A DNA stretch of 34,876 nucleotides from a virus. The DNA is taken from the UHGV virus genome UHGV-0134942, one strand, 5' to 3'. The notes under the pieces were generated by a model that was given only the letters and a program-made list of their open reading frames with translations, did no database searches and was not told the DNA's origin. Position 1 is the first letter of the stretch, and every line of letters starts with the position of its first letter. A program made the position numbers and the translations under genes. Shown one piece after another: positions 8,017 through 34,504 of the stretch.

Positions 8017-8019
8017 CAA

Positions 8020-13704: not shown

Positions 13705-13769
13705 AATATAATAATGTGACCAATTATTATAATAACTTTAATGGATTATTTCTACTGATTATCCAGTGT

Positions 13770-14700: not shown

Positions 14701-14703
14701 AGG
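14684..14703 (+). promoter_or_regulatory. Hairpin pairing the lydA Shine-Dalgarno (AGGAGG) with an upstream CCUCCU
   Basis: CCTCCT(14684-14689), 8-nt loop, AGGAGG(14698-14703); GTG start of the holin-like gene at 14710. Confidence 0.4.
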
Positions 14704-14709
14704 GAACTT

Positions 14710-15039
14710 GTGCTTGACACACAGGAATTAGCTCCAGTTGCTATTGCGCTCCTGCTTTCAGTAATTGGTGGGATAGGCACGTTCCTGATGGATGTCCGAG
14801 ATGGTCGCCAGTCTGGCAATTTGTTGGGATTGGTTACGGAGATCTTTGTTGCAGTGACAGCTGGCGCGGTGGCGTACCTATTGGGGCAACACGAGGGCTG
14901 GGAGTTATCAATTACGTACTTAATGGTAACGATAGCCAGCAATAACGGTCATGAGGTGATTTCAGGGATGAAACGAGTGAATATCGATAGCATTCTGAAT
15001 GTTCTTACAAGTTTGGTGAAAAAGGGAGGTGGGAAATGA
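14710..15039 (+). CDS. lydA: Holin-like membrane protein (109 aa)
   Basis: GTG start with AGGAGG Shine-Dalgarno; hydrophobic helices (LAPVAIALLLSVIGGIGTFLM and EIFVAVTAGAVAYLLG); first gene of the hdf-darA operon, as P1 lydA. Name by synteny. Confidence 0.55.
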   Translation: MLDTQELAPVAIALLLSVIGGIGTFLMDVRDGRQSGNLLGLVTEIFVAVTAGAVAYLLGQHEGWELSITYLMVTIASNNGHEVISGMKRVNIDSILNVLTSLVKKGGGK

Positions 15040-15479
15040 TTGGCTGGGGTGTATGCGTTCTTGCGTTAGCCTTAGCCGATCGCTATTTGCTAAAACGCAA
15101 GGACATCACGCATTTAGAACTTGGTGATGTGGAAGTTAAACAGGGCTTCATCCGGGTGCCGTTCAAATACCGGTCTAAATTCCCGTTTTTGCGCGGCGCA
15201 ACGGTCAGATATTGGATCCGCGATGTTCAGAAGCCAACGACAGTGATTGAAGGCGAACAACGTTGTCTGACGTCGGCTGAACAGGGCGAAAACAGTGAAT
15301 GGTTGTACATACCCACTGAATATATGGGTAAAGGAGAACGGCTGTGGCATTTCAACGTCATGGTTACGCATGGTGACTCGTTCATTAACCCGTTGTATCG
15401 GATTTTCCCTGTTACTCAGCAAATCCGCAGAAGTTACGTAATAAATCTCGCACAGGATGTGTCAGATGACGAAAAATAA
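15036..15479 (+). CDS. lydB: LydB-like lysis regulator (antiholin-like, 147 aa)
   Basis: ATGA overlap with lydA; N-terminal hydrophobic segment. Name by synteny. Confidence 0.5.
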   Translation: MIGWGVCVLALALADRYLLKRKDITHLELGDVEVKQGFIRVPFKYRSKFPFLRGATVRYWIRDVQKPTTVIEGEQRCLTSAEQGENSEWLYIPTEYMGKGERLWHFNVMVTHGDSFINPLYRIFPVTQQIRRSYVINLAQDVSDDEK

Positions 15480-16068
15480 GTATGCAACGGTCGATTTTGA
15501 CCAGGTTAATGAAAAGGGGCTGAAATCCCTTATCGCGGCGATCAATAAAACCGGGGTTACGGTAATTGAGGTTGACTCCAGCAACCGCGCAACAACGAAA
15601 GATGGCGTTAAAGTTAAAACCGCAAAGCTGGTTCTTAACGACGGACAAATTCTTGCCATACAGGTAAACGATACTGGCGATATATCGTCTGTGAAACTGA
15701 ATGGAAAAGCTATTCCTAACGCTCAGTCGCCGGATATCAAGACGCTTGGTACCGTCATGGGACAGGCGGCCCGCAAAAACTCCGCAAAATTCCAGAAATC
15801 ACTGATCGCCAAAGCGAAGCGTGTTGCCAATCCGGTAGACAAGAAACCGGCAGTTAAATCCAACTTTCAGCGCCTGCAAGAAGCAAAACAGCGGAATGCT
15901 CAGGTGGTTGCCGCTTATAAGTCCGCGCAGAATTCGGTGTCTTTCAATCAACAGCAGATCACTGATTTGCGGGCGAAGCTGGATAAGGAGACAGGCCGAC
16001 TCAATAACGAAAAGGCCCGAAATGGCGAACTCAAACGCCGTCTTAAGCAACTGAAAGCAGGAAATTAA
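15457..16068 (+). CDS. hdf: Hdf-like protein (homologue of a DarA fragment, 203 aa)
   Basis: Shares a segment with the downstream 639-aa protein (…KNSAKFQ…, and GQILAIQVNDTGD versus GQTISILFHSPTAE). Position upstream of darA as in P1. Confidence 0.55.
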   Translation: MCQMTKNKYATVDFDQVNEKGLKSLIAAINKTGVTVIEVDSSNRATTKDGVKVKTAKLVLNDGQILAIQVNDTGDISSVKLNGKAIPNAQSPDIKTLGTVMGQAARKNSAKFQKSLIAKAKRVANPVDKKPAVKSNFQRLQEAKQRNAQVVAAYKSAQNSVSFNQQQITDLRAKLDKETGRLNNEKARNGELKRRLKQLKAGN

Positions 16069-16069
16069 C

Positions 16070-17989
16070 ATGGAGCAGTTCAATATCAATAAAGGGGTGA
16101 CGATCAAGCCTGGGCTTGACGTGCTTCCCCCGCCAGTGACTGATGATGAATATCGCGCATTAATGGCCGGTGAGGACCGCTATCTGATGACGGAATCCAA
16201 CACCCTGGAGGAAATCGAGGCTACGTTCTTCTATGACACGCCGATCCACTGGTGTGCTACGGATTTACTGGAGGCGATTAGTTCTACTCGTTTGCAGTTA
16301 CACCGGACCATGCAGGCATTTGTCCGGGCATTGAACCAGAAGCTGAATGGTACCGGAATCTCTGCGGGGAGTGATAAAACGGGGGATGTGGCCCAGAACG
16401 GCGCGCGCGCGATCGGCGGTGCTGAAATTGGCCGGGCACGGAACGTTAACGGGCTGCCGGTCCTGCCAGCCATTATTCCGCTCAGTGATGGTCAGACTAT
16501 CAGCATTCTGTTTCATAGCCCGACAGCGGAAAACCGGATCACCAATAGCGATACGCTGGTTGCTTTCCAGTTCTTACTGAATAAAAAAGACGTTACTCAC
16601 ACCGTTGCTCCGATGAGTGGACGTGATATGACGCTGGCGCAGGTCACCATGAAACTTGCCAACCTTGCAGAGAAAAACTCGGCAAAATTCCAGCGTGCGC
16701 AGAAGAAGAAAAAAGCCCTGGTTGATGAAATAACCCAACTACAGGCTGACAGTGACCAGAAAGAGGATGCCATGAGCGACCTCGCGGATCAGGTGGCAGT
16801 GGTAGAAGGGCAGAAGGCAGATCTGGAGCAGAAAATTAACGCGGTCGCCTCGGAAGCGGATTCTCTTTATGAAGAGAATGAGCGTTTGCAGGCGGAGATT
16901 GATCAGCTCAATCGAACAGGTGGGCGCGATACCATTGCTCCAGTGGCAATAACTGGTGGGCACTCACGCGCGTTGACGGATCGCCTTGCCAGTATCAAAA
17001 ATCGCATGCATATGGACGGTGAAGCGACGCTCAGTAATGGTGCATCAATGAAGCAATTCATTGGGGATGGCGAAGGGTATATCCAGTTAACCGATCCGGA
17101 TGGCAGCGTATACATGATCAAGGCTAAATCCATACAGGGTGTGGACATGGCAGATGCAATCGGCAAGCTGTTTAAAGCCTATAAAGCGGGTAATGTATCG
17201 GAATACCTGGTCCAACCAGAAGAACATAAACCGGAAAACGTCGAACCTGAACCAGCGGAGGATACCGGTAGCTCTTCGCCTGAACCAGAAGTCTCTGTAG
17301 GTGCATATCGATATGCCCTGCAAATGCGTCCGGCGGCCCCTGGCGCAATACCTGAAGGTAACAAAGCAATTCTGCCGCGCCCTGATGAAGGTGACCCGTA
17401 TTATGAATATGCACGCTACGGCATTGCTACTTACGATACCCCGCTTTCTGATCAGCAAATGAGTGAGTACGACCTGAAGTTATTGCCTCGCGAGGATTCT
17501 TTCGATTTCCTGGCGAAGACACTTACTAATGGTCCGTTTGGCAAATATGCACAAAAAGCTCTGGAGCTGGCCACCAGCTCACCAGACGAGTTCCGCGTAA
17601 TGCTGAAAACTCAGTTTCAAAAAACTTTCCCCAATATTGCGTTTCCTGGGGGCGCTGGCACCGAGAAAATGGTGCAGAGCATGATCAATGCATTGCAGGC
17701 CGAAGTCGGTGAGATTACTCAGCCAGAACCGGCCCCGGCACAGCCTGATGAAACGGTTAGCGAAGCAGATGCAGAGGCTAATAAAGCCATTGAATATCTC
17801 AATAACGTGATGGATATGCAAAGCACTGACATGGCGGAGATCCGTAACGCCCGGGGCAATGTCCGGGAAGCGATTGCAGCCCTTCAGGCTGCCGGACGTT
17901 TTGAGGAAAACGAAGAGCTGGTTAACGGCGCAGCTCGCCACCTGGCTGATCTGTTGGTAGCAATCCAGAAAGCGGGGGTAGCGGCATGA
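16070..17989 (+). CDS. darA: DarA-like internal head protein, anti-restriction (639 aa)
   Basis: Size and position match P1 DarA as recalled; central coiled-coil and acidic segments; AGGAAA Shine-Dalgarno before the ATG. Confidence 0.6.
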   Translation: MEQFNINKGVTIKPGLDVLPPPVTDDEYRALMAGEDRYLMTESNTLEEIEATFFYDTPIHWCATDLLEAISSTRLQLHRTMQAFVRALNQKLNGTGISAGSDKTGDVAQNGARAIGGAEIGRARNVNGLPVLPAIIPLSDGQTISILFHSPTAENRITNSDTLVAFQFLLNKKDVTHTVAPMSGRDMTLAQVTMKLANLAEKNSAKFQRAQKKKKALVDEITQLQADSDQKEDAMSDLADQVAVVEGQKADLEQKINAVASEADSLYEENERLQAEIDQLNRTGGRDTIAPVAITGGHSRALTDRLASIKNRMHMDGEATLSNGASMKQFIGDGEGYIQLTDPDGSVYMIKAKSIQGVDMADAIGKLFKAYKAGNVSEYLVQPEEHKPENVEPEPAEDTGSSSPEPEVSVGAYRYALQMRPAAPGAIPEGNKAILPRPDEGDPYYEYARYGIATYDTPLSDQQMSEYDLKLLPREDSFDFLAKTLTNGPFGKYAQKALELATSSPDEFRVMLKTQFQKTFPNIAFPGGAGTEKMVQSMINALQAEVGEITQPEPAPAQPDETVSEADAEANKAIEYLNNVMDMQSTDMAEIRNARGNVREAIAALQAAGRFEENEELVNGAARHLADLLVAIQKAGVAA

Positions 17990-18351
17990 CACTATCAGCT
18001 ATTGAGTTAATGGATCTCAGCGATAAGTTGGATGCTCTGATGTCCAAAGCGGCTACCGCGAGTGGTATGGAGTTGCTGGATATCAGCGATGAAATTGACC
18101 AGATCATGCAACAGATGGGGTACGGCGCGTCCGGCGGTGGTAGTGGCGAGGAAAAACAACCTTCGGAACATGATGGTGTGCCAAAACTGGTTGCTGATTT
18201 CCTGGCTGATAAATTCGTCGATCAGAGCACCGATGCATTTATCGGTACCTTGCAGGATTTGAGTCAATATGTTGGCACATACATCGACCTGGACCAGGTT
18301 AAACAGCACACGGCGGCATGGATAGCCGCCAACATTAAAGAGGCAGCATAA
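17986..18351 (+). CDS. ddrA: DdrA-like protein (121 aa, acidic)
   Basis: ATGA overlap with the darA stop; small acidic protein. Name by synteny. Confidence 0.45.
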   Translation: MTLSAIELMDLSDKLDALMSKAATASGMELLDISDEIDQIMQQMGYGASGGGSGEEKQPSEHDGVPKLVADFLADKFVDQSTDAFIGTLQDLSQYVGTYIDLDQVKQHTAAWIAANIKEAA

Positions 18352-18363
18352 GGCGTAACAGGG

Positions 18364-21351
18364 ATGAGCTTAAGCGATCAGGTGGTAATGGCCACCAGCA
18401 TAGAAACGCTGATCGAGCTGCTAAAGAACCTGCCCGATTATGGGCGGGTTTCGTATGTGGTGACAGCGAAGGGAGACGAGGTAAAAACAGCGTTTGATAT
18501 CGTCGATGCCTCAGCTCTTTTGGTATCCAATACTCTGGATGGGCAAATTAATCCTGACTATCCCCAGGAACTTCAACCGCGCGACCGGACCCGCGCATCC
18601 AGCCTTCTTCAGGTTAACCAGATATCCAAAGATTTGCGGCCTGCTCAGCTTACTGATTCCGGTTTATCCAGCCATGGCGCGCCGATAATTGGTGAGGACA
18701 ATGCCGTTGAGTCAGGTAATGGACGGACCATGGGGATCATCAAAGCCTATCAGGACGGCAATGCGGATCGGTATCGTGAGTACCTGATTGATCATGCGAC
18801 CGAATTCGGCATACGACCTGAAAAGGTTGAATCAATGACGGCTCCGGTACTGGTGCGCCGCCGGTTAACTAAGGTTGACCGCGTTCAGTTTGCCAAGGAC
18901 TCAAATATTTCTGATCTTCAGGAAATGGCAGCCAGTGAAAAGGCTTTTGTTGATGCCGACAGCATAACACCGGCGATGATGGCGCTTTTTAACCCGTCAG
19001 AAAGCGGAGATCTGCTTAGCCGCAGTAATGACGCGTTTATTCGCGGATTTATGACGCAAGTTGGTGCCACACAGGCGGCTGGCCTTGTAACTGAAGATGG
19101 GCGACCAACACGGCAACTTGTAGACCGTATACAAAACGCGATCTTTGCCAAGGCATATAAGGATGCGCGCCTGGTAAGGATGGTTGCAGAAGAACCTGAT
19201 CCGGATATGCGTAATGTTCTGACGGCGCTTAATGCGGCAGCCAATGATTTTGTCCAGATGCAGGCTTTATCAGGAGAAGCGCACAAGCAGGCTGTGACAA
19301 CTATTGTTGATGGCATTGAGACAGCGGATAGCCTCGATAAAAAGGCGCTGGCGGCATTGAAAGATGCGGTAGACCTGGTAAGGCAATCGAAGGAGTCAGG
19401 CCAGCATATTACCGATGTTATTGCTCAGGGGGATATGTTCAGCGAAACGGCCCCGGAAGTGAAAGCACTCGCGTTGTTCATCGTCGCGAATAACCGTAGC
19501 GCGAAGCGTATGGCCACCGCCTTTAAGTTGATGGCTCAACGTATCAATGATGAGTTACAGCACCAGGGCCAGGCGCTGGGGGATATGTTTGGCGGCGGCG
19601 ATGTGTCGTTACAGGATATCCTTCGCCAGGTGTCTCAGGAACTGGAAAACGAAGGCATGCAAGGGATATCCGGCGGTCTTTTCGAGTCCGTTTCCGGCGG
19701 TAGTTACAACGGTGTTGCTCCGTATACCAGTTTGCTATTACATCGGGCATCCGGCATCAAAGACATTATTCATCTGATCAGGCTGCTTTCCCGCACAGAT
19801 CCCCAGGATGAACAGCTTGTACAAGTGCTTGCGCATTTTGTTCGAATGCCTGTTGCCGACGTGAAAAAATGGTGCCGATTATTCGGTATCAGCAATTCGT
19901 TACTTCGCGGCTTGTTAAATCACGCATCCTCCCTTGGGCGCGATGGCTTTGACGAGATAGCGCAGGCGATAAAAAACGGAGATATGCCACCAGCTATTGA
20001 CTGGTTTTCCATTCGCCCAACCAGGGTGAAAGCATTCCTTAGCGCGGCGCATTCGGCATCACCATTGGCAGAAATGGTTCAGAGGTTGTCGCTCATATTC
20101 ACAGACCATACCGCGTTGGGTGATCTGACTCTGGACGAGATGAAAGAAGCCTCCATTCAGTGGGCCGATCAACAAAATGAGGTTAACTCAGACTTCTTGC
20201 CAGCATTCAGGAAGGCCGTTAGTAAAGCGGATGATGCCCGTGGAATTCTGAAGGCATTTAAGGCATTGCAAAGTCGTGTTAATAAACATGTCGGTGATAT
20301 CGATGGGGTAACGGCGGAAGGCCGGGATATCCTTCAAGAGCACGGCATAACGCCAGAGTTTATTGATGAGATCAGGACTGATATGCAGCGTGAGGTCGTA
20401 TCGTCCCTGCAAATCGTAGCCAGAGCGTTGGCGGATGCTAATCCGAAGAGTGCGGCCATTGTTAACCGGGTTATTGGTGATATTGAAGCATCGGAGGGCA
20501 TGGGGGCGCTGAAACTCTTCCTTTCGCGAGCGTTTAATCCTAACGGCAATATTCTCCCTGGCATTATTGGTGAGGCTAAAAAGTATGTCAGTGAAGAAGA
20601 ACTTGAGCAGCTTGACCAACTACTTAAGCGATTCTCATATAACCCGCAGACACGCTGGCAAATGAATCAGCGAAGTATGGGTTCGGTCCACGAGAAAGTG
20701 TTATCTGCCATGAACAGTGCGATCGCCAACTCATCCGTATCTGAAGAAAAAGCTCTTGAGTGGGCCGACTCTTTTATCACGGAAGAAGTGGAAGAAGCCC
20801 GCGCTGGACAGAATGGTGGGATAAACCTGCGCAAGGAACTTGCTGATATTTATCGCCTGACTGGCGGGAAAATATCGACCTTATCAAAGGTGGTTCACCA
20901 CCAGGGAAGGGCATATGCAAATCTAAATGGTGTTGTTGCTGTCAATTTGAACGATGAAAATGCAAGTGCACTGTGGCACGAGCTGGGTCATCATCTTGAG
21001 TACAGTAACCCCGGTTTGTTAGAGAAAGCCCGGTCATTCCTGAAGGCCAATGTTGAAGGGGGTAAGCCATCTTTCGTCAATATCGGTGGGCGTGGCAAGC
21101 CTGAATGGTGCTTCAGATCTCGATTGAGTAATATTTATATGGCGAAGGTATACCCGCCAGTCTCAGTGAGTAACTCCGGGAAAATTCGGCAGAAATCACC
21201 GACTATTTCCAAAACGTCAGCAACGGAAGTATTCTCTATGGCTCTTCAGTTGTATCATGACAAAGAGGCCGCTGCCGCATCACTGATGAATGGTGACGGA
21301 TTGCTGGAACTGTTATTAGGTGTGGCAAAGGAGCTAAATAATGCAGATTAA
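18364..21351 (+). CDS. ddrB: DdrB-like large protein of the Dar module (995 aa)
   Basis: Long ORF co-oriented with darA; name by synteny and size. Confidence 0.55.
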   Translation: MSLSDQVVMATSIETLIELLKNLPDYGRVSYVVTAKGDEVKTAFDIVDASALLVSNTLDGQINPDYPQELQPRDRTRASSLLQVNQISKDLRPAQLTDSGLSSHGAPIIGEDNAVESGNGRTMGIIKAYQDGNADRYREYLIDHATEFGIRPEKVESMTAPVLVRRRLTKVDRVQFAKDSNISDLQEMAASEKAFVDADSITPAMMALFNPSESGDLLSRSNDAFIRGFMTQVGATQAAGLVTEDGRPTRQLVDRIQNAIFAKAYKDARLVRMVAEEPDPDMRNVLTALNAAANDFVQMQALSGEAHKQAVTTIVDGIETADSLDKKALAALKDAVDLVRQSKESGQHITDVIAQGDMFSETAPEVKALALFIVANNRSAKRMATAFKLMAQRINDELQHQGQALGDMFGGGDVSLQDILRQVSQELENEGMQGISGGLFESVSGGSYNGVAPYTSLLLHRASGIKDIIHLIRLLSRTDPQDEQLVQVLAHFVRMPVADVKKWCRLFGISNSLLRGLLNHASSLGRDGFDEIAQAIKNGDMPPAIDWFSIRPTRVKAFLSAAHSASPLAEMVQRLSLIFTDHTALGDLTLDEMKEASIQWADQQNEVNSDFLPAFRKAVSKADDARGILKAFKALQSRVNKHVGDIDGVTAEGRDILQEHGITPEFIDEIRTDMQREVVSSLQIVARALADANPKSAAIVNRVIGDIEASEGMGALKLFLSRAFNPNGNILPGIIGEAKKYVSEEELEQLDQLLKRFSYNPQTRWQMNQRSMGSVHEKVLSAMNSAIANSSVSEEKALEWADSFITEEVEEARAGQNGGINLRKELADIYRLTGGKISTLSKVVHHQGRAYANLNGVVAVNLNDENASALWHELGHHLEYSNPGLLEKARSFLKANVEGGKPSFVNIGGRGKPEWCFRSRLSNIYMAKVYPPVSVSNSGKIRQKSPTISKTSATEVFSMALQLYHDKEAAAASLMNGDGLLELLLGVAKELNNAD

Positions 21352-21649
21352 AATCGCAGCGCCATTAGGCGGAGATGCCATTATCGAATTTGATGATAAT
21401 GAAGAAGTTTCCGGGCGTTTAAGCATTATCTCCGGTGACATTACCGAGGACATGATCGCTGAAGCCATAGCTGGAGCAAATCCCAATAGCTATATGGGAT
21501 TCGTTAACACCCTTGATGCTCCCGCAAGTGATGTTCTCCGAACGCTGCATCTTTACGCTGGCTGGTTTGTTGATTGGCCAGCAGTAGATGGTGGCGATGA
21601 GGACGACGACGATGATTTTGGTGATCATGTAGACCAGATCGTATATTGA
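21341..21649 (+). CDS. Small acidic hypothetical protein (102 aa)
   Basis: Overlaps the ddrB 3' end by 11 nt; C-terminal DGGDEDDDDDFGD; followed by a terminator. Confidence 0.45.
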   Translation: MQIKIAAPLGGDAIIEFDDNEEVSGRLSIISGDITEDMIAEAIAGANPNSYMGFVNTLDAPASDVLRTLHLYAGWFVDWPAVDGGDEDDDDDFGDHVDQIVY

Positions 21650-21651
21650 AG

Positions 21652-21680
21652 AAATCCCGCCAATCGGCGGGATTTTTTTT
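21652..21680. terminator. Bidirectional rho-independent terminator between convergent genes
   Basis: AAATCCCGCC / loop AATC / GGCGGGATTT followed by TTTTTTTT on the + strand. Confidence 0.7.
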
Positions 21681-22641
21681 AATCGCTTTCCACTTCTTCC
21701 GTAGTGTTTTCTTGCAGTTCTGTTAATGCAGCACGACACAGGCTCCGGGCATTGGCTATAGCCACACTTTTGACTTCATCCGTCATCGTGCAGGTAATGT
21801 ACTGATCGAGTTCTTCAGCGCGGATGATGCTTTTGCCAATCAGAAACTGTATTTGCCAGAGCAGATCAGCATCCATAATCAGAATTTCTGCCGGGCCTTC
21901 AGGACCAGCCGGGAAGGAAACATAAGACTGTTTGCCCAGGCCGATAACTCGACAACTTGCTTCAAGAATTGCGCGATTGAGGTCTGACTTTGTAACTGAT
22001 ACAGGTTGATTTTCACCTGCGATTACGCCGTTGACATGGATGTGGAATGGCATGTAGCTTGAAATTCGCTCTACTTTCCATACGCCAGCAAGCGATCCTT
22101 CATGCAGCACAATGGGGGTAACCGCGAGTTTCATCTCACCATATAACTGCTGGCAGATAGCTGGATTGCTGAATACATCCAAAGGTTCACACTCAAACAG
22201 CGGCGCAATCTGTATGAGGTCCATCATGGTCATACCAGGGGTACGAGCAGTAATGAATCTGCGCATGCCAGTATCCATTGTGCGCCAGATAGCTACACCA
22301 TGCTTTTTGCTCACTTCTTCAGTAAAGCCAAGGTGGCACATGATGGTTTTTTCGATAGCCAGATCAGAGATAGAAACCTTTTCGCCAGGTACACCATCAT
22401 TATTGATGGTCACTTCGACACTCTGGCCATTACGCAGGCGGTATTGAATTGTTTTAGTATTTTGTGCTGTCATAGTCTTTTCTCTGCTTAAAAACTGATG
22501 TATTGCGCCTTCAGGTGGGTCAGGAATGTTTTCCCACCAGCGAAAGCAATATCTCGGGGTGTTCTTTTCGTGAAAAGCGCGTGCCATTGCCAACTTTGGC
22601 GTTTTTTTGCGAGTTCGTGCTTTTGTCGGCGTCTTGACCAC
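21679..22641 (-). CDS. Hypothetical protein (320 aa, start uncertain); occupies the position of P1 isaA/isaB
   Basis: Long minus-strand ORF between ssb and the Dar operon. Very basic N-terminus suggests the real start may be an internal Met (for example MTAQNTK). Confidence 0.5.
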   Translation of the reverse strand: MVKTPTKARTRKKTPKLAMARAFHEKNTPRYCFRWWENIPDPPEGAIHQFLSREKTMTAQNTKTIQYRLRNGQSVEVTINNDGVPGEKVSISDLAIEKTIMCHLGFTEEVSKKHGVAIWRTMDTGMRRFITARTPGMTMMDLIQIAPLFECEPLDVFSNPAICQQLYGEMKLAVTPIVLHEGSLAGVWKVERISSYMPFHIHVNGVIAGENQPVSVTKSDLNRAILEASCRVIGLGKQSYVSFPAGPEGPAEILIMDADLLWQIQFLIGKSIIRAEELDQYITCTMTDEVKSVAIANARSLCRAALTELQENTTEEVESD

Positions 22642-22675
22642 CGCTTTTCTTTCAGTCGTTTTTTACTCATAAACT

Positions 22676-23164
22676 CTAAAACGGAATATCGTCGTCAAAG
22701 TCCATTGGAGGTTCGTTATTGGCGTTGCTCTGAGGTTTACCGCCACCACTGTATTGCTGGTGGTTTTGAGGTTGGTTTGATTGCCCCCAGCCATTTGAGG
22801 ACTGTGAATCGTCACGGCGAGCGCCGATCATTTGCATGGTGCCGCCCTGGCTGACGATAATTTCCGTCGTGTAACGTTCTACACCGACGTCATCTGTCCA
22901 CTTACGGGTTTTAAGTTTCCCTTCGATGTAGACCTGAGAACCTTTTCGTAAATACTCACTCGCAATTTCAGCAAGTTTTCCGAACAAAACGACTTTATGC
23001 CATTCTGTCTGCTCTTTCTGTTGGCCCGTTTGCTTGTCGCGCCATGATTCATTCGTTGCGATGCTGAGTCTTCCGACAGCGCCGCCATTTGGTATATACC
23101 TGATCTCCGGGTCTTGCCCCAGGGTACCAATCAGGATGACTTTGTTTACACCGCGTTGTGCCAC
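22676..23164 (-). CDS. ssb: Single-stranded DNA-binding protein (162 aa)
   Basis: Canonical SSB OB-fold N-terminus ([20 protein letters not shown]…[12 protein letters not shown]), Gly/Gln-rich linker and acidic tail DFDDDIPF; GTG start. Confidence 0.95.
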
Positions 23165-23183
23165 TTATCTTACCTAATAAAAT

Positions 23184-23200
23184 AAAATGATTAGAGCAAT
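23184..23200 (-). promoter_or_regulatory. C1-operator-like 17-mer in the ssb/lyz divergent intergenic region
   Basis: Minus strand reads ATTGCTCTAATCATTTT, 15/17 to ATTGCTCTAATAAATTT. Confidence 0.45.
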
Positions 23201-23333
23201 AATGTATATCTTTGAAACGTAGCTAACAAGTGATTTGCATTATCCTGTGCCTTCTAAAGGGATCGAGTCAGTCGGTATTGACTGTGAATGGGTATTTGTC
23301 CTGGAGCGTAAAAAATTCGCTTATGAGGTCTTT

Positions 23334-23891
23334 ATGAAGGGAAAAACAGCCGCAGGAGGCGGTGCAATTTGCGCTATCGCGGTGATGATTACCATCGTGA
23401 TGGGTAATGGCAATGTGCGAACCAACCAGGCGGGGCTTGAGCTTATCGGAAACGCTGAAGGTTGCCGACGTGACCCATACATGTGCCCGGCGGGTGTATG
23501 GACTGACGGGATTGGTAATACACACGGGGTAACGCCAGGCGTGCGAAAAACCGACCAGCAAATCGCCGCTGATTGGGAAAAGAATATCCTGATCGCTGAA
23601 CGCTGTATTAATCAGCACTTCCGGGGCAAAGACATGCCCGATAATGCCTTCAGCGCAATGACAAGCGCGGCATTCAATATGGGATGCAATAGTTTACGGA
23701 CCTACTACAGCAAAGCGCGAGGCATGCGAGTCGAAACGTCCATCCACAAGTGGGCGCAGAAAGGGGAATGGGTGAATATGTGTAACCATCTCCCTGATTT
23801 TGTGAACAGTAACGGCGTCCCCCTGCCCGGGTTAAAGATTCGCCGTGAAAAAGAACGCCAGCTTTGCCTGACGGGGCCGGTCAATGAATAA
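23334..23891 (+). CDS. lyz: SAR (signal-arrest-release) endolysin (185 aa)
   Basis: N-terminal MKGKTAAGGGAICAIAVMITIVMG signal-anchor, Cys at positions 13, 44 and 51, lysozyme motif ELIGNAEG. Track ORF 23235..23891 begins at an upstream alternative start. Confidence 0.9.
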   Translation: MKGKTAAGGGAICAIAVMITIVMGNGNVRTNQAGLELIGNAEGCRRDPYMCPAGVWTDGIGNTHGVTPGVRKTDQQIAADWEKNILIAERCINQHFRGKDMPDNAFSAMTSAAFNMGCNSLRTYYSKARGMRVETSIHKWAQKGEWVNMCNHLPDFVNSNGVPLPGLKIRREKERQLCLTGPVNE

Positions 23892-24138
23892 ACTCCGGCA
23901 GCTCCGCCGACTTTCGACAATGAAGTTATCGCTGGCGGCGATAGTTTTCGACTCGATTTTCATGGCGGTATATGTGCTCAATGAGACGTGGCCACTGGAA
24001 CCGCTATTGTATGCTGGGCTTCGGCTGTGCCTGACATTTTTGAGCATGGCTGCAAGATTGATGCAGCAGAAAGAAACCGCTTCAGATTGTCCACGCCGCG
24101 CGGTGCGCAAATATATGGCACGCAGGCGAAGGCGATAA
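23884..24138 (+). CDS. Possible small membrane protein overlapping the lyz stop (84 aa)
   Basis: ATG inside the lyz stop region; two hydrophobic segments followed by a basic tail (RRRRR). Could be a lysis accessory protein or spurious. Confidence 0.3.
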   Translation: MNKLRQLRRLSTMKLSLAAIVFDSIFMAVYVLNETWPLEPLLYAGLRLCLTFLSMAARLMQQKETASDCPRRAVRKYMARRRRR

Positions 24139-24150
24139 TAGTTAACGAGA

Positions 24151-24177
24151 ACCCCGGCAGCCGCCGGGGTTATTTTT
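24151..24177. terminator. Rho-independent terminator between lyz and the 3' end of pro
   Basis: ACCCCGGC / loop AGCC / GCCGGGGT followed by TATTTTT. Confidence 0.7.
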
Positions 24178-24182
24178 GGTGG

Positions 24183-26913
<2,731 letters not shown>

Positions 26914-26980
26914 TTAATTAGAATAATTCGCATCGTGTTTGAACGGAAATTTAACACTAGTCACTTGTTAAGGATTACCA

Positions 26981-29900
26981 ATGAACAAGCTATCTATGGG
27001 GGTGTTTCGCTGTTCAAGTGTCAGCGAAATATTGAAATACATTAGGGCAATAACATCTCACCGAGCGCCGATTAAATACGGCGTGGAAAAGGTGGAAGGC
27101 AAAAGCTATGACCGACTGCGCCGTGAGGCGAATCAGAAGGCGATAGATTTGCTTAATTCGCTGGTGGACGGCGCGACACTGACAGATGAACAGCGCCAGA
27201 TCCTGGCCGGGTACACTGGTGAAGGCGGCATTGGCGGGTCCGTCTCCGAATATTACACACCAAAGCCTATCGCTGAAGGTGTCTGGGAGATCATGAAGCT
27301 CTACGGCGCGGACGTAGGTAACACTCTGGAACCATCGGCGGGAACCGGCGTTTTTAATGAGACAAAACCGGTTGGTACGGTGATGACCGCGACTGAGATC
27401 AGCAGTGTTTCCGGTCGTATAAACCAGTTGTTACACCCGGAAGACAGCGTACAGATTTCCCCGTTCGAACAGCTGGCTATAAACACGCCTAACGATTCAT
27501 TCGACCATGTTGTGGGTAACGTTCCGTTCGGCGGTCGTGATAACACACGCAACATCGATAAGCCTTACGCAGAAGAAACGGACATGGGTTCTTACTTCAT
27601 GCTCCGCATGCTGGACAAGATAAAGCCAGGCGGATTCATGTGCGTGATTGTGCCGCCGTCCATTGTTTCAGGTTCAAACATGAAGCGGTTACGCCTGCGC
27701 CTATCACGGAAAGCTGAATTTCTTGGTGCCCACCGCTTGCCTACCGGTACTTTTGACGCAAACGGGACCAGTACGGTCGTTGACGTGGTGCTGATGCGCA
27801 AACATCCGGCGGAGATGGCTGAGAAAATCCCCCTGGTGGATGAAGGCACTCTTGAATCGGCAAATGTGCTTTGGCCAACGTTTATTTCTGGCAAGTGGTT
27901 TGAAAAGGACGGCCGCCGGTTTGTTCATGGCACTCAGGAGAAGGGATTTCAGGGGCGTATTGAGGTTCGTGCCGACGGGCAGATTGATAACCAGGCTCTT
28001 AAAGCGAAGCTGATTCATCGTTTCGAAAGTCGTATCGACTGGTCTTTGCTCGATATGGCTGAACCGTCACCGACCGCAGATGTTGTTGATGAAGGGGAAA
28101 TGCGCCTGATTAATGGCGTATGGCAAAAATATGCTGGTGGTCGCTGGATTGAAGCTGATGCCGGGAAGGAGCTGAAGATTGAGGTTGCCAGTTATGGCGC
28201 GGATAGCTGGGAGGCTCTTCAGCGTAACCTGACTACAACAGAAGGCCGTCTCGGTATGACATTTACCCAGATGGCAAATGTCCGCGATAAGTACACCACA
28301 TCAATCAGCGACGATATGGTGCAGCTGGTGGACTGGATTAACAGCCAGCCTGAAAAATACCGTGAACGCTTGTATCGTGGGGCGATGATTGGCCGGATGT
28401 TAATTGAATATCAGGATATGAAGGCCGCCGGGCATAGTGCTGAACAAATCGAACAGCAGCGCCTTTCTCTGGTATCCCGTTTGCAGGCAGAGATTGACCG
28501 TTTTGGTAACCCCGGTCGCGGTCCGATAGCGAAATTATCGGGGAGCGGTGCGCGCGCCTGGTTTGCTTTCCGTGGTGCAATTAAGCTGGATGGCACTATT
28601 TCTGACGAGCTGACAGGAAAACTGGTTACGCATGATTCCATCGCCAGTTATGACTCCACCAGCTATCAGGACACCCTGCGTTATCTCTACAGTGATCTCA
28701 CTCGCGATCCAATCCAGCTCGATGATTTCCGCCTTGCGTTTACCGGCGAACTGCCAGCCAGTGATGATGAGTTGCTTAATTTATTGGCCAGCACCCCTGG
28801 CATTGCGGTTTCACCGTATGGCGGGATTGTTCCGTTCGCCCGCGCCACCAGCGGCGACATTAACGAGATAGTGGCTCCAAAACAGGAATTCCTCGCCACG
28901 CTCCCCGACGGTCCAGTAAAGAACAACGTCCTTAATCAGCTGGCAGCGATCGAAGAGAAGCGCATCAAGACGCCAGCAGAGAATATCCGCTTTAAGCTCA
29001 ATAGCCGTTGGTTCGACCGTTCCGTCATTCTGGAGTTTTTGCAGGAAAACGGCTATCCGGATCTGCGCTATGTGCAGTCAGTGCAGCTGGAAGGCGACGA
29101 AATGGTTTCTGACACCTATCACGGTGGTGATGGTCTGTTCGTCGGGCACCGATACGGTGTCGTCCAGCGCAAGGATAAAGAAACAGGCGAGATCCGCTAC
29201 GAGTGGGACCGTAAATCAGGTGAAAACGCGACCGGGTTCCCGGCACAGCTGGAAAAGTATCTCAATGGTGCGCGTATCGGTGGCAAAGATAGCGCGACGG
29301 CGAACGGCTACCGCGAGCAGATGGCACTGCTTGAGGACCAGTTCAATAAGTGGATCAAGACGCACGATCGCTACGATGAGCTGGTTGCCAAATACAACGA
29401 TGTGTTCAATAGCAATATCCCGTATGAACACTCTGGCGATCCGCTTGGGTTGAAGGGATTAAGCGGTAAGCGCCAGCCATTTGATTACCAGAATAGCGAG
29501 GTGCGCCGACTGTCCGAAGATGGGCGCGGCATCCTGGGCTTCGGCACCGGGCTGGGTAAAACCACGACCGCGCTGGCGCTTGAGGCGTTCAACTATGAGA
29601 ACGGTCGCTCCACCCGTACTGCGTATGTAGTGCCTAAATCAGTGCTGGAAAACTGGTATTACGAAGCAAAAGAATTCCTGAGTGAAGAGGCATTCAGTAA
29701 CTACCTGTTCGTCGGTCTTGATGTGCTGATGGATGGCGATCAGATTCGCCAGGTGCCGGTGCTCGATGAGAACGGTAAACCTGTTCTTGGTACTGATGGC
29801 ACTCCAGTTATGCGCGATGCTCTTAAGCTGGCAGATGAAGCCACTATCACGGCGCGGATGAACGCGATCCCGCACTCAAATTACCGTGCAGTCGTGTTTA

Positions 29901-32900
29901 CCAAAGAACAATACGCCCGCATTCCGCTACGTGATGACACCGTAGATGAGCATGCACAGGATATGCTTTATGACTTCGTTGCCGCCGGGCGCGTAGCCAG
30001 CGCAATGGACTCCGACTCCCACCGCAAAGAGGCTGCGCGTCGCCGGGTATTGTCGGAGTATTCAGATACCGGCACCGAAAAAGCAGAGAAGTATCCGTAC
30101 TTTGAGGATATGGGCTTCGATAGTGTGATCGCTGACGAAGGTCACAACTACCGCAATAGCTATAAAAATGGTCGCGAAGCGTCACAACTGGCCTATCTGC
30201 CCACCAGCGCGGTGGCGCAATCGGCGCGAGATATGGCAATTAAAAACGCGTACCTGATGAAAAAGAATGGCGGGCGCGGGCCGGTTCTCCTGACTGCAAC
30301 GCCAGTCGTTAACACCCCGATCGATGCATACAACATGCTTTCTCATGTTCTGCCGAAGGAATACTGGCAGAAGATGGGGATCTACGGTCCTGATGACTTC
30401 GTTAAATTCTTCGGCAAGACCAGGCTGGAAACGGTACAGAAAATCAGCGGTGAAGTTGAAGAAAAAATGGCGCTGGTGGGCTTTGAAAACCTTGATGCGC
30501 TGCGCGGTATATTCCATCGCTGGGTAACGCTTAAAACGGCGGAAGACGTTAAGGATACCGTGGAGATCCCGGAGCTGGACGAACACCAGCAGGATGCACC
30601 ACTTACTGAAGAACAACTGGCGGCGTATGAAGAATTGCGTCAGCAGGCGGAAGCGGCGGCCAAAGCCAACAATGGCGTAACGACCTCGGTCAATGAAGAC
30701 GGCGTGATTGAGCACGAGAAAGCCCGTCCGATCTTCTCAATAATCAGGGATATGGACCGCGTATGTACTGACATGGACCTGTACTATCGCCGGATCACCT
30801 ATCGTTTCCTGCCGGAGTACGCCGATGCGGTGCAGCAGCTGGCGGACAGTTTGCCTAAACAAGCCACCAGCGAAGACGACGACAGTGATGATTCAATCAC
30901 GCAGCAATCGCAATACTCCCTGATAGATAAGGGCGAGTTTATTCAGTTGCAGGTTCCGGAAGCGTTCGAGCAGGAAGTGAATAAGCGCCTGGCCAGGTTT
31001 GGCATTGACGAACAGACCGTAACTCACCCCGTTACGCCCAAATACGCGAAGCTGATTGCCACGCTGAAGGAGTTTTTCCCGGAAGGTAAGCAAATCATCT
31101 TCACCGATGAAAAAACGCAGCACCAGAAGCTCAAGCGCATTATCTGCAATGCTCTTAACCTTGAACCTTCAAAGGTGGGGATACTGAATGCTCAGACGGT
31201 TGCCGAGGCAGGTAAAACCGGTAAGAAACTGAAAGCGGTTAAACCGCCGAAAGAGTTACCGGATGAACCAACAGATGCACAGATAGCGAAATACAACGAG
31301 CAAATGGCTCTGTATGACGCCTATATCGCGCAGCAAAATGAAATGTCGTTGGGCGGTCTGGAAAAGATTGCAGCCGACTTCCAGGAGGGCCGGACTCCGA
31401 TCATCATCTGCAACAAAAAGGCAGAGGTGGGTATCAACCTGCATCGAGGAACGACGGATATCCACCACCTGACGTTGCCGTGGACACCAGCCAGTATCGC
31501 ACAGCGTAACGGTCGCGGTGCCCGAGTTGGTTCCAACCGTGCAAGCGTTCGCGTTCACTACTACTGCGGCAAGGGGTCTTTCGATGAATACCGACTGAAG
31601 ACGCTGAAGCGTAAAGCAGGCTGGATCTCCGATATCCTCCGTTCAGATAAGTCAGAAATGGATAACGCCGACGCCAATGACATGATCGAAATGCAGATGT
31701 ATACCGCGAAGGATGACGGCGAACGTCTGGCAATGATGCAGGTTCAAATGGATAAGGCGAAAGCTGCGAAACGCGCTCGCCAGAAAGAACAGGCTACTAT
31801 CGACCTTCAGAACTACATCAAGGCGCAGCACGCAGCTGGCGAGGATGTGGAGGTACTTACCGCTGAATTAGAGCGAAGCAAAGCGGAACTTGAAAAGACC
31901 ACCGCCGAGGTAGCTAAATTCAAACAGGCGGCAATGGCCAAGGCAGCGGATAACGCAGACTGGAAGGCCCGCTGGGGGAGTGTCCATCACACAGACCGTA
32001 TGTTGTTAGCACAGTATCGCGCGTCGTTGAAAAGCGCCATTCAGCGCAAGGCTAATATCTCTCAGGCCATCTCCCGCTATGAGAAATTATTGAACCGTAC
32101 CCAGAAGGCCGCGACGGATATCAAACGCCTGCGCCCGCTGGTGGAGGATGCAATAAATAAAGGCATTCTGGATGTTGATCCTGATCTGGTTAACCATGCG
32201 AATGAGTTCCTTGTTATCGGCGATCGCTCATGGCGTGTAGGCCAATACTACGATTGTGCCGGTGATATCGTTCGCATTAAGTCGCTGGACTTCGACAGCC
32301 AGCGCGCAGACGTGGAGATCATCTTTACCTTCAAAGGCACCAAATCGGGTAACTGGGATGTGAAGACGCTGGATAAACAGGTTGATGTAACTCCCGATGA
32401 AGATGCTGTTATGCAGAAAATCAGTGGTGGCGTCTCCATCGCCGGGATTAACGACATCATTTCCTGTGACGATTTCTACCGTTTCCAGCAGCGCGGCATG
32501 ATCAAAATCACTGACTCATACGGCGTTCAGACTACAGAGTCAGGCTATAGCATTGATTTTGTTGGTACCTATACGGCCCCACTGAAGCATGCGGTTTACC
32601 CGGATCGCCGTGACGGCGCGCTGAAGTCGTCAATTGCAAAATGGGTGCTTGGTATGATGTCGGAAGGGAATAACCGCCAGATCCGTTCGGCAGAAACATT
32701 CCTGGTTGAATTGTTTGGCTCCAATTATGGCGATGTAATCGCGTCATACGGAGATACGCTATCCCCTGAAGCAATTCAGGAGAAAATAGCGGATGCGATC
32801 GCCAGAATGCCGGAAAAAACAAGCCAGGGGGCTACTCGTAACGGGGATTCTGAACTTGAAGTCACCAATGCCATTTTCGGTACCAATGAGTTCCGGGGGT

Positions 32901-33748
32901 CAGATTATGAGATCACCACAGCACAGTTTGGCACCATTGGCATTTACAGCAATAAAGCCGAGATCAAGCAGGCAATGGACGCAGCAAGCGCGCGCATCGC
33001 AGCAGAACGGGAAGCCAATCTGAATCATGCAGTCGCCGCACTGACTCAATCGTGGGTAACAGCAATCAGGGAGGCCGCCACCACAGGGAAAATCACACCT
33101 GCAATTGCGGATGTCGTAAACGACGGCTCTAAATTTATGGATGCCTATCAAATGGATGCGGTGCAGTTGCCATCAGCCTATGGCCAACTCAGCTATCGCA
33201 TGACCTACAACCTGGTATCAATGTTTTCCGACCTTGCCATCCTTGGGCTGGTGGATCTTAACGAGGTTACGCCGGAATTGCTCAGCATGCGCAAGAATCA
33301 TGTGGAGATATTGCAGAGAATTAACACGGTTCTTGCCGGGCGCACCGATGAAGAGAAACAGGCCGACGCTGATCGGATAAACCTGGCCCTTGGCAACATC
33401 ACGGAGGAAGAGATTGCCGCCAGAAACGAGAAACAAGAAGAGTTATCATCAATACAGGGTGATGCCACCAGCATAGCTCAGTCTCTTGGTCTGAATTATC
33501 GCGTATCCACCGCCGACCTGAAGATGATGTACGCACCAAAATTCGCCGCTGGCGAGGTATTTGGGCTTCAGGAAGCCTCAGGCATGAAAGGCGTTCTTTT
33601 CCGTGCGAAAGACGCAATCAAGGCGAAATTCGGCGCTCGCTGGCTGCCAGCGAAGGCGAAGAACAGCGATTTCCCGGGTAACTGGTGGATTATCGAGACA
33701 AAACACAACGTGGCGGACGTTCTGGCCGTCATCCAACAATACGCATAA
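26981..33748 (+). CDS. darB: DarB-like anti-restriction protein: N6-adenine methyltransferase fused to a helicase (2255 aa)
   Basis: Methyltransferase motif I (LEPSAGTGVF) and motif IV (VVGNVPFGG); helicase Walker A (GFGTGLGKTTTALAL), DEGH box (IADEGHNYRN), TATP (LLTATPVVNTP) and motif VI (QRNGRGARVG). Length matches P1 DarB as recalled. Confidence 0.85.
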   Translation: MNKLSMGVFRCSSVSEILKYIRAITSHRAPIKYGVEKVEGKSYDRLRREANQKAIDLLNSLVDGATLTDEQRQILAGYTGEGGIGGSVSEYYTPKPIAEGVWEIMKLYGADVGNTLEPSAGTGVFNETKPVGTVMTATEISSVSGRINQLLHPEDSVQISPFEQLAINTPNDSFDHVVGNVPFGGRDNTRNIDKPYAEETDMGSYFMLRMLDKIKPGGFMCVIVPPSIVSGSNMKRLRLRLSRKAEFLGAHRLPTGTFDANGTSTVVDVVLMRKHPAEMAEKIPLVDEGTLESANVLWPTFISGKWFEKDGRRFVHGTQEKGFQGRIEVRADGQIDNQALKAKLIHRFESRIDWSLLDMAEPSPTADVVDEGEMRLINGVWQKYAGGRWIEADAGKELKIEVASYGADSWEALQRNLTTTEGRLGMTFTQMANVRDKYTTSISDDMVQLVDWINSQPEKYRERLYRGAMIGRMLIEYQDMKAAGHSAEQIEQQRLSLVSRLQAEIDRFGNPGRGPIAKLSGSGARAWFAFRGAIKLDGTISDELTGKLVTHDSIASYDSTSYQDTLRYLYSDLTRDPIQLDDFRLAFTGELPASDDELLNLLASTPGIAVSPYGGIVPFARATSGDINEIVAPKQEFLATLPDGPVKNNVLNQLAAIEEKRIKTPAENIRFKLNSRWFDRSVILEFLQENGYPDLRYVQSVQLEGDEMVSDTYHGGDGLFVGHRYGVVQRKDKETGEIRYEWDRKSGENATGFPAQLEKYLNGARIGGKDSATANGYREQMALLEDQFNKWIKTHDRYDELVAKYNDVFNSNIPYEHSGDPLGLKGLSGKRQPFDYQNSEVRRLSEDGRGILGFGTGLGKTTTALALEAFNYENGRSTRTAYVVPKSVLENWYYEAKEFLSEEAFSNYLFVGLDVLMDGDQIRQVPVLDENGKPVLGTDGTPVMRDALKLADEATITARMNAIPHSNYRAVVFTKEQYARIPLRDDTVDEHAQDMLYDFVAAGRVASAMDSDSHRKEAARRRVLSEYSDTGTEKAEKYPYFEDMGFDSVIADEGHNYRNSYKNGREASQLAYLPTSAVAQSARDMAIKNAYLMKKNGGRGPVLLTATPVVNTPIDAYNMLSHVLPKEYWQKMGIYGPDDFVKFFGKTRLETVQKISGEVEEKMALVGFENLDALRGIFHRWVTLKTAEDVKDTVEIPELDEHQQDAPLTEEQLAAYEELRQQAEAAAKANNGVTTSVNEDGVIEHEKARPIFSIIRDMDRVCTDMDLYYRRITYRFLPEYADAVQQLADSLPKQATSEDDDSDDSITQQSQYSLIDKGEFIQLQVPEAFEQEVNKRLARFGIDEQTVTHPVTPKYAKLIATLKEFFPEGKQIIFTDEKTQHQKLKRIICNALNLEPSKVGILNAQTVAEAGKTGKKLKAVKPPKELPDEPTDAQIAKYNEQMALYDAYIAQQNEMSLGGLEKIAADFQEGRTPIIICNKKAEVGINLHRGTTDIHHLTLPWTPASIAQRNGRGARVGSNRASVRVHYYCGKGSFDEYRLKTLKRKAGWISDILRSDKSEMDNADANDMIEMQMYTAKDDGERLAMMQVQMDKAKAAKRARQKEQATIDLQNYIKAQHAAGEDVEVLTAELERSKAELEKTTAEVAKFKQAAMAKAADNADWKARWGSVHHTDRMLLAQYRASLKSAIQRKANISQAISRYEKLLNRTQKAATDIKRLRPLVEDAINKGILDVDPDLVNHANEFLVIGDRSWRVGQYYDCAGDIVRIKSLDFDSQRADVEIIFTFKGTKSGNWDVKTLDKQVDVTPDEDAVMQKISGGVSIAGINDIISCDDFYRFQQRGMIKITDSYGVQTTESGYSIDFVGTYTAPLKHAVYPDRRDGALKSSIAKWVLGMMSEGNNRQIRSAETFLVELFGSNYGDVIASYGDTLSPEAIQEKIADAIARMPEKTSQGATRNGDSELEVTNAIFGTNEFRGSDYEITTAQFGTIGIYSNKAEIKQAMDAASARIAAEREANLNHAVAALTQSWVTAIREAATTGKITPAIADVVNDGSKFMDAYQMDAVQLPSAYGQLSYRMTYNLVSMFSDLAILGLVDLNEVTPELLSMRKNHVEILQRINTVLAGRTDEEKQADADRINLALGNITEEEIAARNEKQEELSSIQGDATSIAQSLGLNYRVSTADLKMMYAPKFAAGEVFGLQEASGMKGVLFRAKDAIKAKFGARWLPAKAKNSDFPGNWWIIETKHNVADVLAVIQQYA

Positions 33749-33781
33749 CAGGAGCGCCCGGTTCGCCGGGCGTCGCATAAT

Positions 33782-34467: not shown

Positions 34468-34475
34468 ATCTTTGG

Positions 34476-34500
34476 CTATGCCTGGCTAAGCCAGGCATAG
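34476..34500. terminator. Perfect 11-bp palindrome between convergent genes (terminator-like)
   Basis: CTATGCCTGGC / TAA / GCCAGGCATAG; no strong U-tract on either strand. Confidence 0.45.
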
Positions 34501-34504
34501 GAAT

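Follow-up and report, generated by a model that had tools for sequence, protein, structure and literature searches.

A Very Probable, Sequence-Intact Dar Anti-Restriction System of the P1 Type in a Phage-Plasmid with an IS1-Associated Deletion of Tail Genes

The window, which is the whole stretch of DNA analysed here (34,876 nucleotides, virus genome UHGV-0134942), can be assigned firmly to a P1-like phage-plasmid. Its positions 14643-34468 align collinearly with the P1 phage at 98% nucleotide identity, in two BLAST blocks against the P1 genome (AF234172): 14643-21647 at 98.2% and 21679-34468 at 98.0%. The following features are located in this region:

14663..14681, plus strand: LPdar, the Lpa-dependent late promoter that drives the darA operon in P1; identical over 19 nt to the LPdar annotated in P1; upstream of lydA
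14710..15039, plus strand: lydA (holin), which opens the darA operon; 109 aa, 100% identity to P1 LydA
15036..15479, plus strand: lydB (LydA antagonist); 147 aa, 97.3% identity to P1 LydB
15457..16068, plus strand: hdf, a Dar component and the partner of DarA on the inner capsid surface; 203 aa, 201/203 identical (99.0%) to P1 Hdf
16070..17989, plus strand: darA, internal head protein required for packaging all other Dar proteins; 639 aa, 628/639 identical (98.3%) to P1 DarA
17986..18351, plus strand: ddrA, a Dar component; 121 aa, 119/121 identical (98.3%) to P1 DdrA; PHROG "DdrA-like anti-restriction protein", 9.8e-58
18364..21351, plus strand: ddrB, a Dar component; 995 aa, 980/995 identical (98.5%) to P1 DdrB
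18918-19316, minus strand: iddB, nested in ddrB on the opposite strand; 100% identity to that of P1
21341..21649, plus strand: hxr (Xre-like), which closes the operon and is not a Dar gene; 102 aa, 98.0% identity to P1 Hxr; 11-nt overlap with ddrB
21648..21680, no single strand: bidirectional hairpin terminator separating hxr from convergent isaA; 14-bp stem followed by a T-run
24183..25202, minus strand: pro (prohead protease), accessory to Dar and not one of its components; 339 aa, 99.4% identity to P1 Pro
25195..26904, minus strand: prt (portal protein), divergent from darB; 569 aa, 99.1% identity to P1 Prt
26948-26966, minus strand: LPpro, an exact P1 match
26981..33748, plus strand: darB, the methyltransferase-helicase Dar effector; 2255 aa, 2230/2255 identical (98.9%) to P1 DarB
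33782..34222, plus strand: ulx, the sixth Dar component, which aids DarB localisation; 146 aa, 144/146 identical (98.6%) to P1 Ulx; PHROG "Ulx-like anti-restriction", 4.5e-66

The original prediction placed a complete Dar set between 15457 and 33748, and both ends are exact, the first being the start of the hdf ATG and the second the final nucleotide of the darB stop. Eight non-Dar genes (hxr, isaA, ssb, lyz, lydD/E, pro and prt) occupy about 5.3 kb of this span. The published Dar system comprises six proteins (PMC9024508, PMC12810830), one of them Ulx, with a role in DarB localisation (PMC9024508, Table 1). The set is complete because ulx is also present and intact; this gene had not been listed among the grounds for completeness, and it begins 34 nt past the proposed end.

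Global alignments showed that each of the six Dar genes keeps its P1 length, with zero internal stops or frameshifts and protein identities of 98.3-99.0%; a screen of the six for frameshifts, stops or length changes relative to P1 saw none. The expected similarity to P1 Hdf, DarA, DdrA, DdrB and DarB was recovered at 98-99% over each full-length protein. On their sequences, the six genes are true orthologues of the P1 genes, beyond the "DdrB-like" and "DarB-like" labels first given to two of them, and no sequence feature speaks against orthology. They share with the P1 Dar system (AF234172 / NC_005856; hdf, darA, ddrA, ddrB, darB, ulx) the order, orientation, lengths, late promoters, and catalytic and targeting motifs, with 2-25 amino-acid substitutions per Dar protein and none in the mapped motifs. 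As in P1, they are arranged in two loci, the late darA operon and the darB-ulx pair beside the divergent prt-pro head genes. Overall, the region very probably encodes a Dar (defence against restriction) system that is intact in sequence, orthologous to that of P1 and carried by a P1-like (Punavirus) phage-plasmid.

The darA operon runs in the order LPdar, lydA, lydB, hdf, darA, ddrA, ddrB, hxr, as in P1. From lydA to hxr, neighbouring genes either overlap or are separated by no more than 12 nt; lydB shares 4 nt with lydA and 23 nt with hdf. Exact matches to P1 late promoters were found in the window for LPdar, LPlyz and LPpro, and the late-promoter pattern gave four matches against 0.04 expected by chance, none of them an internal late promoter splitting the darA operon. 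A terminator scan of positions 14400-34390 returned 31 matches, modestly above the 20.1 +/- 4.4 of shuffled sequences; inside the operon it found no convincing terminator, only weak matches with 5-8-bp stems. The hairpin between hxr and isaA folds at -21 kcal/mol (z = -4.9), and at -17.1 kcal/mol (z = -4.0) on the minus strand. In P1, hxr and isaA are separated by 1.7 kb carrying isaB and an IS1, whereas in the window isaB-IS1 is absent and the hairpin terminator is found instead. A single-operon reading of lydA-hxr is supported because there is one late promoter (LPdar), the genes are tightly packed and the first strong terminator comes only after hxr. This agrees with the proposal that hdf, darA, ddrA and ddrB form one late operon with lydA and lydB. 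The two lyd genes do belong to it (14710-15479, upstream), although lydA and most of lydB precede position 15457, where the proposed set began.

Hdf and DarA share the DarA_N domain (PF18788; 77 bits in Hdf and 143 bits in DarA), and both match chains of the P1 cryo-EM entry 9ukm over their full lengths (chain H for Hdf, chain I for DarA). Hdf also matches the PHROG "Hdf-like antirestriction" (4.7e-80), and DarA carries DarA_C in addition to DarA_N and scores 1102 bits with the NCBIfam model anti_RE_DarA, against a cut-off of 350. In the N-terminal 69 residues of DarA, M10V is the sole change from P1. Compared with the closest plasmid, darA contains a recombination patch at nucleotides 731-1890, where its allele also differs from that of P1. 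DdrB combines an N-terminal DdrB-type ParB domain (Pfam ddrB-ParB, PF18763, 134.8 bits, residues 36-167) with a C-terminal HExxH metallopeptidase motif (HELGH, residues 872-876). DdrB-ParB together with a zincin metallopeptidase is a polyvalent-protein architecture (Iyer et al. 2017, PMC5512222). A sequence search of DdrB against the PDB gave no significant match.

The 2255-aa DarB had been placed beyond prt and pro, and indeed these two genes sit between the darA operon and darB. Mapping of DarB confirmed that its methyltransferase and helicase motifs are the same as in P1. The AdoMet-binding motif I is LEPSAGTGVF (residues 116-125) and the catalytic motif IV is NVPF (180-183), in which V replaces the first P, as it does in P1; the domain is a predicted methyltransferase. 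The SF2/SNF2 motifs lie in two RecA-like lobes and comprise a Walker A GTGLGKT (855-861), the DExH box DEGH (1052-1055), motif III TAT (1105-1107) and the motif VI arginine finger QRNGRGAR (1508-1515). Pfam matches exceed their cut-offs both for the methyltransferase (N6_Mtase, 33 bits vs 20.4; Eco57I, 32 vs 25.3) and for the helicase (SNF2-rel_dom, 42.5 bits vs 24.9; ResIII, 25.2 vs 22.5; Helicase_C, 27.7 vs 23.5). Residues 1-60 are those of P1 and include the 30-aa N-terminal capsid-targeting sequence; in P1, the first 30 residues of DarB suffice for capsid targeting (PMC9024508). No late promoter was found on the plus strand immediately upstream of darB, where a sigma-70-like site corresponds to the predicted PdarB of P1.

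The mechanism that may be proposed for this system is taken from P1 work and carried to the window by orthology. The stepwise incorporation and roles of the Dar proteins, as well as the DarB targeting sequence, have been described in P1 (PMC9024508), together with the DarA-Hdf structure (PMC12810830) and the action of Dar in cis (PMC12707154). During late development, the six Dar proteins would enter the procapsid in a set order. Hdf and DarA would be loaded first, in 55 pairs that line the inside of the capsid, and Pro would cleave the N-terminus of DarA. In P1, both DarA and the major capsid protein are substrates of Pro (PMC12810830, PMC9024508), and the gene for this processing is present in the window. 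DdrA, DdrB, DarB and Ulx would follow, with the addition of DarB, the last to enter, aided by Ulx and DdrB. On infection, the Dar proteins would be ejected with the DNA and, by analogy with P1, would shield from type I restriction only the DNA of the same capsid (in cis). The DarA branch may counter EcoA and StySA, and the branch of DarB, DdrB and Ulx may counter EcoB and EcoK. In the present element the Dar genes are intact, but an IS1 adjacent deletion has taken the tail tube gene, neighbouring morphogenetic genes and the greater part of the tape-measure gene out of their usual locus.

The original prediction contrasted the completeness of the Dar set with the loss of morphogenetic genes at an IS1 breakpoint, and this contrast is borne out. 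An IS1 lies at 3434-4201, and an adjacent deletion of 7,047 bp removes pmgC, tub (the tail tube gene), pmgB and the 5' two-thirds of sit (the tape-measure gene; about 830 codons). In the closest plasmid, the IS1 is flanked by a 9-bp duplication, TTCAACATT, while in the window only the left copy remains and the IS1 is joined straight to the middle of sit. This IS1-sit junction is absent from all RefSeq complete E. coli genomes, which indicates that the deletion is private to the source of the window. Outside the darA patch, the regions flanking the deletion match the undeleted plasmid at 100% identity. The major capsid gene (23) and the remaining prophage lie outside the window, and another element of the same cell, for example a second P1-like one, could carry the missing tail genes.

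A set complete in sequence need not be functional, since Dar proteins act only when an infectious virion delivers them. With the tail genes deleted, the prophage is probably tail-defective and the intact Dar set stranded in it, so that delivery would probably depend on a helper phage. With modest confidence, we lean towards regarding the Dar genes as recent relics of a tail-defective plasmid-prophage that yields no infectious particles, intact and functionless but undecayed. The extent of the deletion, which takes three whole genes and most of a fourth, favours this reading, as does the restriction of Dar protection to DNA packaged in the same virion (PMC12707154). Furthermore, the identity of the flanks implies a very recent deletion, after which decay would not yet show. 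Helper functions may, however, exist elsewhere in the cell, and an assembly artefact at the repeated IS1 is possible. The view of the genes as relics qualifies, rather than replaces, their identification as an orthologous Dar system.

A more doubtful alternative concerns hdf and darA, which would be chiefly head-morphogenesis genes (capsid size, scaffolding), with anti-restriction a secondary effect of recruiting the other Dar proteins. [quoted passage not shown] Nevertheless, the morphogenetic and anti-restriction roles of DarA and Hdf are compatible, and sequence cannot separate them.

It is very improbable that the intact, selectively maintained Dar set is still put to use in this element. 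Such use would require either that Dar-loaded heads are completed by the tails of a co-resident P1-like helper, in which case plasmid or transduced DNA would still be shielded, or that DarB and Ulx, whose promoter region is their own and non-late, act from the resident plasmid. The integrity of the genes is the one observation in favour of either route. A very recent deletion explains the integrity of the genes more simply than continued use. The combination of an intact counter-defence system with an IS1-broken tail module is relevant to judging phage spread, or transduction, past type I restriction.

Finally, residues ~86-290 of DarB align with EcoKI HsdM of type I restriction-modification (PDB 2y7c/2ar0), including motif I (xEPxxGTGxF in DarB, DPAAGTAGF in HsdM) and motif IV (NVPF and NPPF, respectively), and DarB shares the Walker A, DEGH, TAT and QxxGRxxR motifs with SNF2-family helicases; the likeness to HsdM and SNF2 proteins is at the domain level only (E ~1e-6). 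Unlike HsdM, DarB fuses both modules, adds ~1,200 further residues, is packaged in the virion and is without HsdS or HsdR partners. The notion that this protein is a host- or plasmid-protective methyltransferase-helicase fusion similar to type ISP, BREX or DISARM enzymes, and not a counter-defence protein, draws on HsdM subunits being the nearest relatives of the methyltransferase domain and on sub-threshold NCBIfam matches of the helicase C-lobe to DISARM DrmD, DpdE and Dnd restriction models, but it is effectively refuted by orthology to P1 DarB: those scores are far under the cut-offs (e.g., 46 bits vs 610), full-length identity to P1 DarB is 98.9%, the targeting sequence is identical to that of P1 and no nuclease domain was found in a Pfam search. 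Residues ~330-800, ~1110-1450 and ~1560-2255 of DarB are uncharacterised, and the non-catalytic parts gave no significant match when searched against the PDB.

As the original prediction recognised, the system is a described one, P1 Dar, and the finding is correct but ordinary. Dar has reportedly been studied since 1987; its six components are said to have been defined in 2017, followed by the virion proteome (2022) and the DarA-Hdf structure (2026). In PLSDB, these genes turn up in about 440 plasmids, and their presence in hundreds of sequenced P1-like plasmids of E. coli and Salmonella leaves little that is new; the practical gain is in annotation, in the P1-like identity of the window and in joining ulx to the set. 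Relative to P1, dN/dS is 0.05-0.18 for the six whole Dar genes, a range that speaks for purifying selection across the lineage. The darA recombination patch gives 0.10-0.29, again purifying, and no signature of diversifying selection or of an arms race was seen in these dN/dS values. The P1-like phage-plasmids compared were SJ46, P7 and E. coli IncY plasmids such as p6CP1-IncY-mcr-3.5, CP122701 and NZ_CP074035, and no single record gave the best match over the whole window. Salmonella phage SJ46 is the best phage match (100% coverage at 98.3%), and the dar operon of plasmid CP122701 (99.9%) and the darB-ulx pair of plasmid NZ_CP074035 (99.6%) are nearly identical to those of the window.

Each open reading frame (ORF) of the window was aligned globally with its counterpart in phage P1. 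All 17 aligned proteins have the P1 length, with internal stops in none. The similarity to the P1 Dar proteins on which the original prediction depended is clear, with 98.3–99.0% identity for Hdf, DarA, DdrA, DdrB and DarB.

Window proteins aligned with P1 (length; identity to P1)
LydA: 109 aa; 100%
LydB: 147 aa; 97.3%
Hdf: 203 aa; 99.0%
DarA: 639 aa; 98.3%
DdrA: 121 aa; 98.3%
DdrB: 995 aa; 98.5%
Hxr: 102 aa; 98.0%
IsaA: 320 aa; 95.9%
Ssb: 162 aa; 99.4%
Lyz: 185 aa; 98.9%
LydD: 84 aa; 100%
LydE: 71 aa; 95.8%
Pro: 339 aa; 99.4%
Prt: 569 aa; 99.1%
DarB: 2255 aa; 98.9%
Ulx: 146 aa; 98.6%
Lxc: 82 aa; 100%

Pfam assigns DarA_N to Hdf and DarA, DarA_C to DarA and a DdrB-type ParB domain to DdrB, all above curated cut-offs, as are the five of five DarB domains (N6_Mtase, Eco57I, SNF2-rel_dom, ResIII and Helicase_C). 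The PHROGs families named are Hdf-like, DdrA-like and Ulx-like antirestriction, and the NCBIfam equivalog anti_RE_DarA scores 1102 bits (cut-off 350). DarA and Hdf match chains of the P1 cryo-EM entry 9ukm (2026) over their full length. Across all six Dar genes, dN/dS against P1 is 0.05–0.18, indicating purifying selection.

The claim of a complete Dar gene set holds in that all six components are present and intact, but only five had been listed: ulx (33782–34222) was omitted and lies outside the span 15457–33748, starting 34 nt past the darB stop codon where that span ends. Because ulx is present and intact, the set is complete once it is counted. The Dar region should thus end at 34222 and, if the operon is meant, begin at 14663. 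A second amendment concerns the ~5.3 kb of non-Dar genes within the span (hxr, isaA, ssb, lyz, lydD/E, pro and prt), among which pro is functionally linked to Dar, since Pro cleaves DarA. With these amendments, the observation is confirmed and its interpretation supported. The dar genes are a common and well-known set: 442 PLSDB plasmids contain 80% or more of the dar operon, and 80% or more of darB–ulx is found in 441. Most of these plasmids are non-mobilizable and come from E. coli and Salmonella.

The ORF table shows a plus-strand run (14710–21649), followed by mixed minus- and plus-strand genes and a 2255-codon ORF (26981–33748). A late-promoter pattern was built from five annotated P1 late promoters, and scanning the window gave only four matches, with 0.04 expected by chance.

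Late-promoter pattern matches in the window
8046: LPs
14663: LPdar
23228: LPlyz
26948, minus strand: LPpro

LPdar (19 nt, 14663–14681) is an exact P1 match. From lydA to hxr, neighbouring genes overlap or lie at most 12 nt apart, no convincing internal terminator was found in this run, and a strong hairpin terminator is located 3´ of hxr. This organization supports a single late operon joining hdf, darA, ddrA and ddrB to lydA/lydB, as originally proposed, and agrees with the P1 literature (Guidolin 1989; Iida 1998). For darB, the scan of the window gave no plus-strand late-promoter match; upstream there is only a sigma-70-like site, corresponding to the predicted PdarB of P1.

When the span 15457–33748 was compared with phage records by megablast, 15 records reached 80% coverage or more. 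They are without exception P1-like (including P1, P7 and SJ46), at 98% identity; the P1 match is 19,968 bases long versus 18,292 for the query. BLAST of the whole window against annotated P1 gave two collinear blocks, 14643–21647 (98.2%) and 21679–34468 (98.0%), and the extra 1.7 kb between them in P1 comprises isaB and its resident IS1. In the window, by contrast, convergent hxr and isaA are separated by a 30-nt spacer, which folds into a strong hairpin terminator for both directions (21648–21680; plus strand, -21 kcal/mol, z = -4.9; minus strand, -17.1 kcal/mol, z = -4.0). This arrangement probably predates the IS1 insertion of P1.

The predicted methyltransferase and helicase motifs of the DarB-like protein could be mapped.

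DarB motifs
residues 116–125: methyltransferase motif I, LEPSAGTGVF
residues 180–183: methyltransferase motif IV, NVPF
residues 855–861: helicase Walker A, GTGLGKT
residues 1052–1055: helicase motif II, DEGH
residues 1105–1107: helicase motif III, TAT
residues 1508–1515: helicase motif VI, QRNGRGAR

Alignment with the HsdM subunit of EcoKI pairs motif I with DPAAGTAGF and motif IV with NPPF. None of the 25 DarB substitutions relative to P1 falls within the mapped motifs. Residues 1–60 are identical to P1 DarB and take in the 30 N-terminal residues that suffice for capsid targeting in P1 (PMC9024508). DdrB retains the metallopeptidase motif HELGH (residues 872–876), in agreement with the combination of ParB and zincin domains that Iyer et al. 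describe (PMC5512222).

These genes are intact orthologues, and their mechanism can be inferred from P1. By analogy, procapsid loading would be stepwise, with Hdf and DarA first (55 pairs at penton–hexon junctions) and DdrA, DdrB, DarB and Ulx afterwards; in P1, DarB is added last, helped by Ulx and DdrB (PMC9024508). The Dar proteins would then leave the capsid together with the DNA, limiting protection to DNA of the same capsid. The DarA branch would act against EcoA and StySA, and the DarB, DdrB and Ulx branch against EcoB and EcoK.

The contrast drawn between this completeness and the morphogenetic genes lost at the IS1 breakpoint is real. In the closest plasmid, p6CP1-IncY-mcr-3.5, the same IS1 (4434–5201) lies between copies of the 9-bp target duplication TTCAACATT; after it come icd, other genes, pmgC, tub, pmgB and full-length sit. 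The window retains only the left TTCAACATT copy, and the right end (4201) of its IS1 (3434–4201) is joined straight to mid-sit (plasmid counterpart, 12251). An arrangement of this kind is the hallmark of adjacent deletion mediated by IS1. The missing 7,047 bp comprise icd, genes of the neighbouring immI/sim region, pmgC, tub, pmgB and ~830 codons of sit. The IS1–sit junction was found in none of 5,426 complete RefSeq E. coli genomes. As Dar works only by way of an infectious particle, this element can probably not deliver its intact set without tail functions provided in trans.

Over 13.8 kb (4201–18000), the window is identical to this plasmid save 35 mismatches, all within darA nt 731–1890 (window 16800–17954, 1.16 kb). 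The flanks of the deletion are nearly identical to the undeleted plasmid, which implies that too little time has passed since the deletion for decay to be visible. In the darA segment, the window, P1 and the plasmid carry three different alleles, ~3% apart (dN/dS, 0.10–0.29), the pattern of a recombination patch under purifying selection.

Directly left of IS1, two KilA-N/ANT antirepressor-type ORFs (1702–3340, minus strand) occupy the ant1/ant2 region of immI, separated by the deletion from icd and the remaining immunity operon. The tail-fibre module (8541–13704) differs from that of P1 in having only one U and one S, the latter long (~1339–1368 aa) and carrying gp34-trimerisation and Collar domains; no invertible C segment or second S´/U´ set is present in it. 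A hexapeptide-repeat acetyltransferase gene (13141–13704, minus strand) follows S/U at the cin position of P1. Between it and LPdar, at the place of cin and lydC in P1, an unannotated gap holds group II intron D1–D4 segments (Rfam; 14257–14338 and 14356–14526, both minus strand; RF01998, 46.8 bits; RF02001, 96.9 bits). They are probably an intron remnant, since no reverse-transcriptase ORF adjoins them; the 1.6 kb containing them is 100% conserved, and unannotated, in 31 E. coli genomes.

At the left end, a sok antitoxin RNA (RF01794, 114 bits; 344–518, minus strand) and a hok-like ORF (near 194–349, minus strand) form a hok/sok post-segregational killing module; p6CP1-IncY-mcr-3.5 annotates hokD at the equivalent place. 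At the right end (34468–34876), P1 homology stops just past lxc. Whereas P1 continues with EcoP1 mod and res, identical plasmids annotate a minus-strand RelA/SpoT-domain ((p)ppGpp synthetase-like) protein, and only the 3´ part of its gene lies in the window (34505–34876, minus strand).
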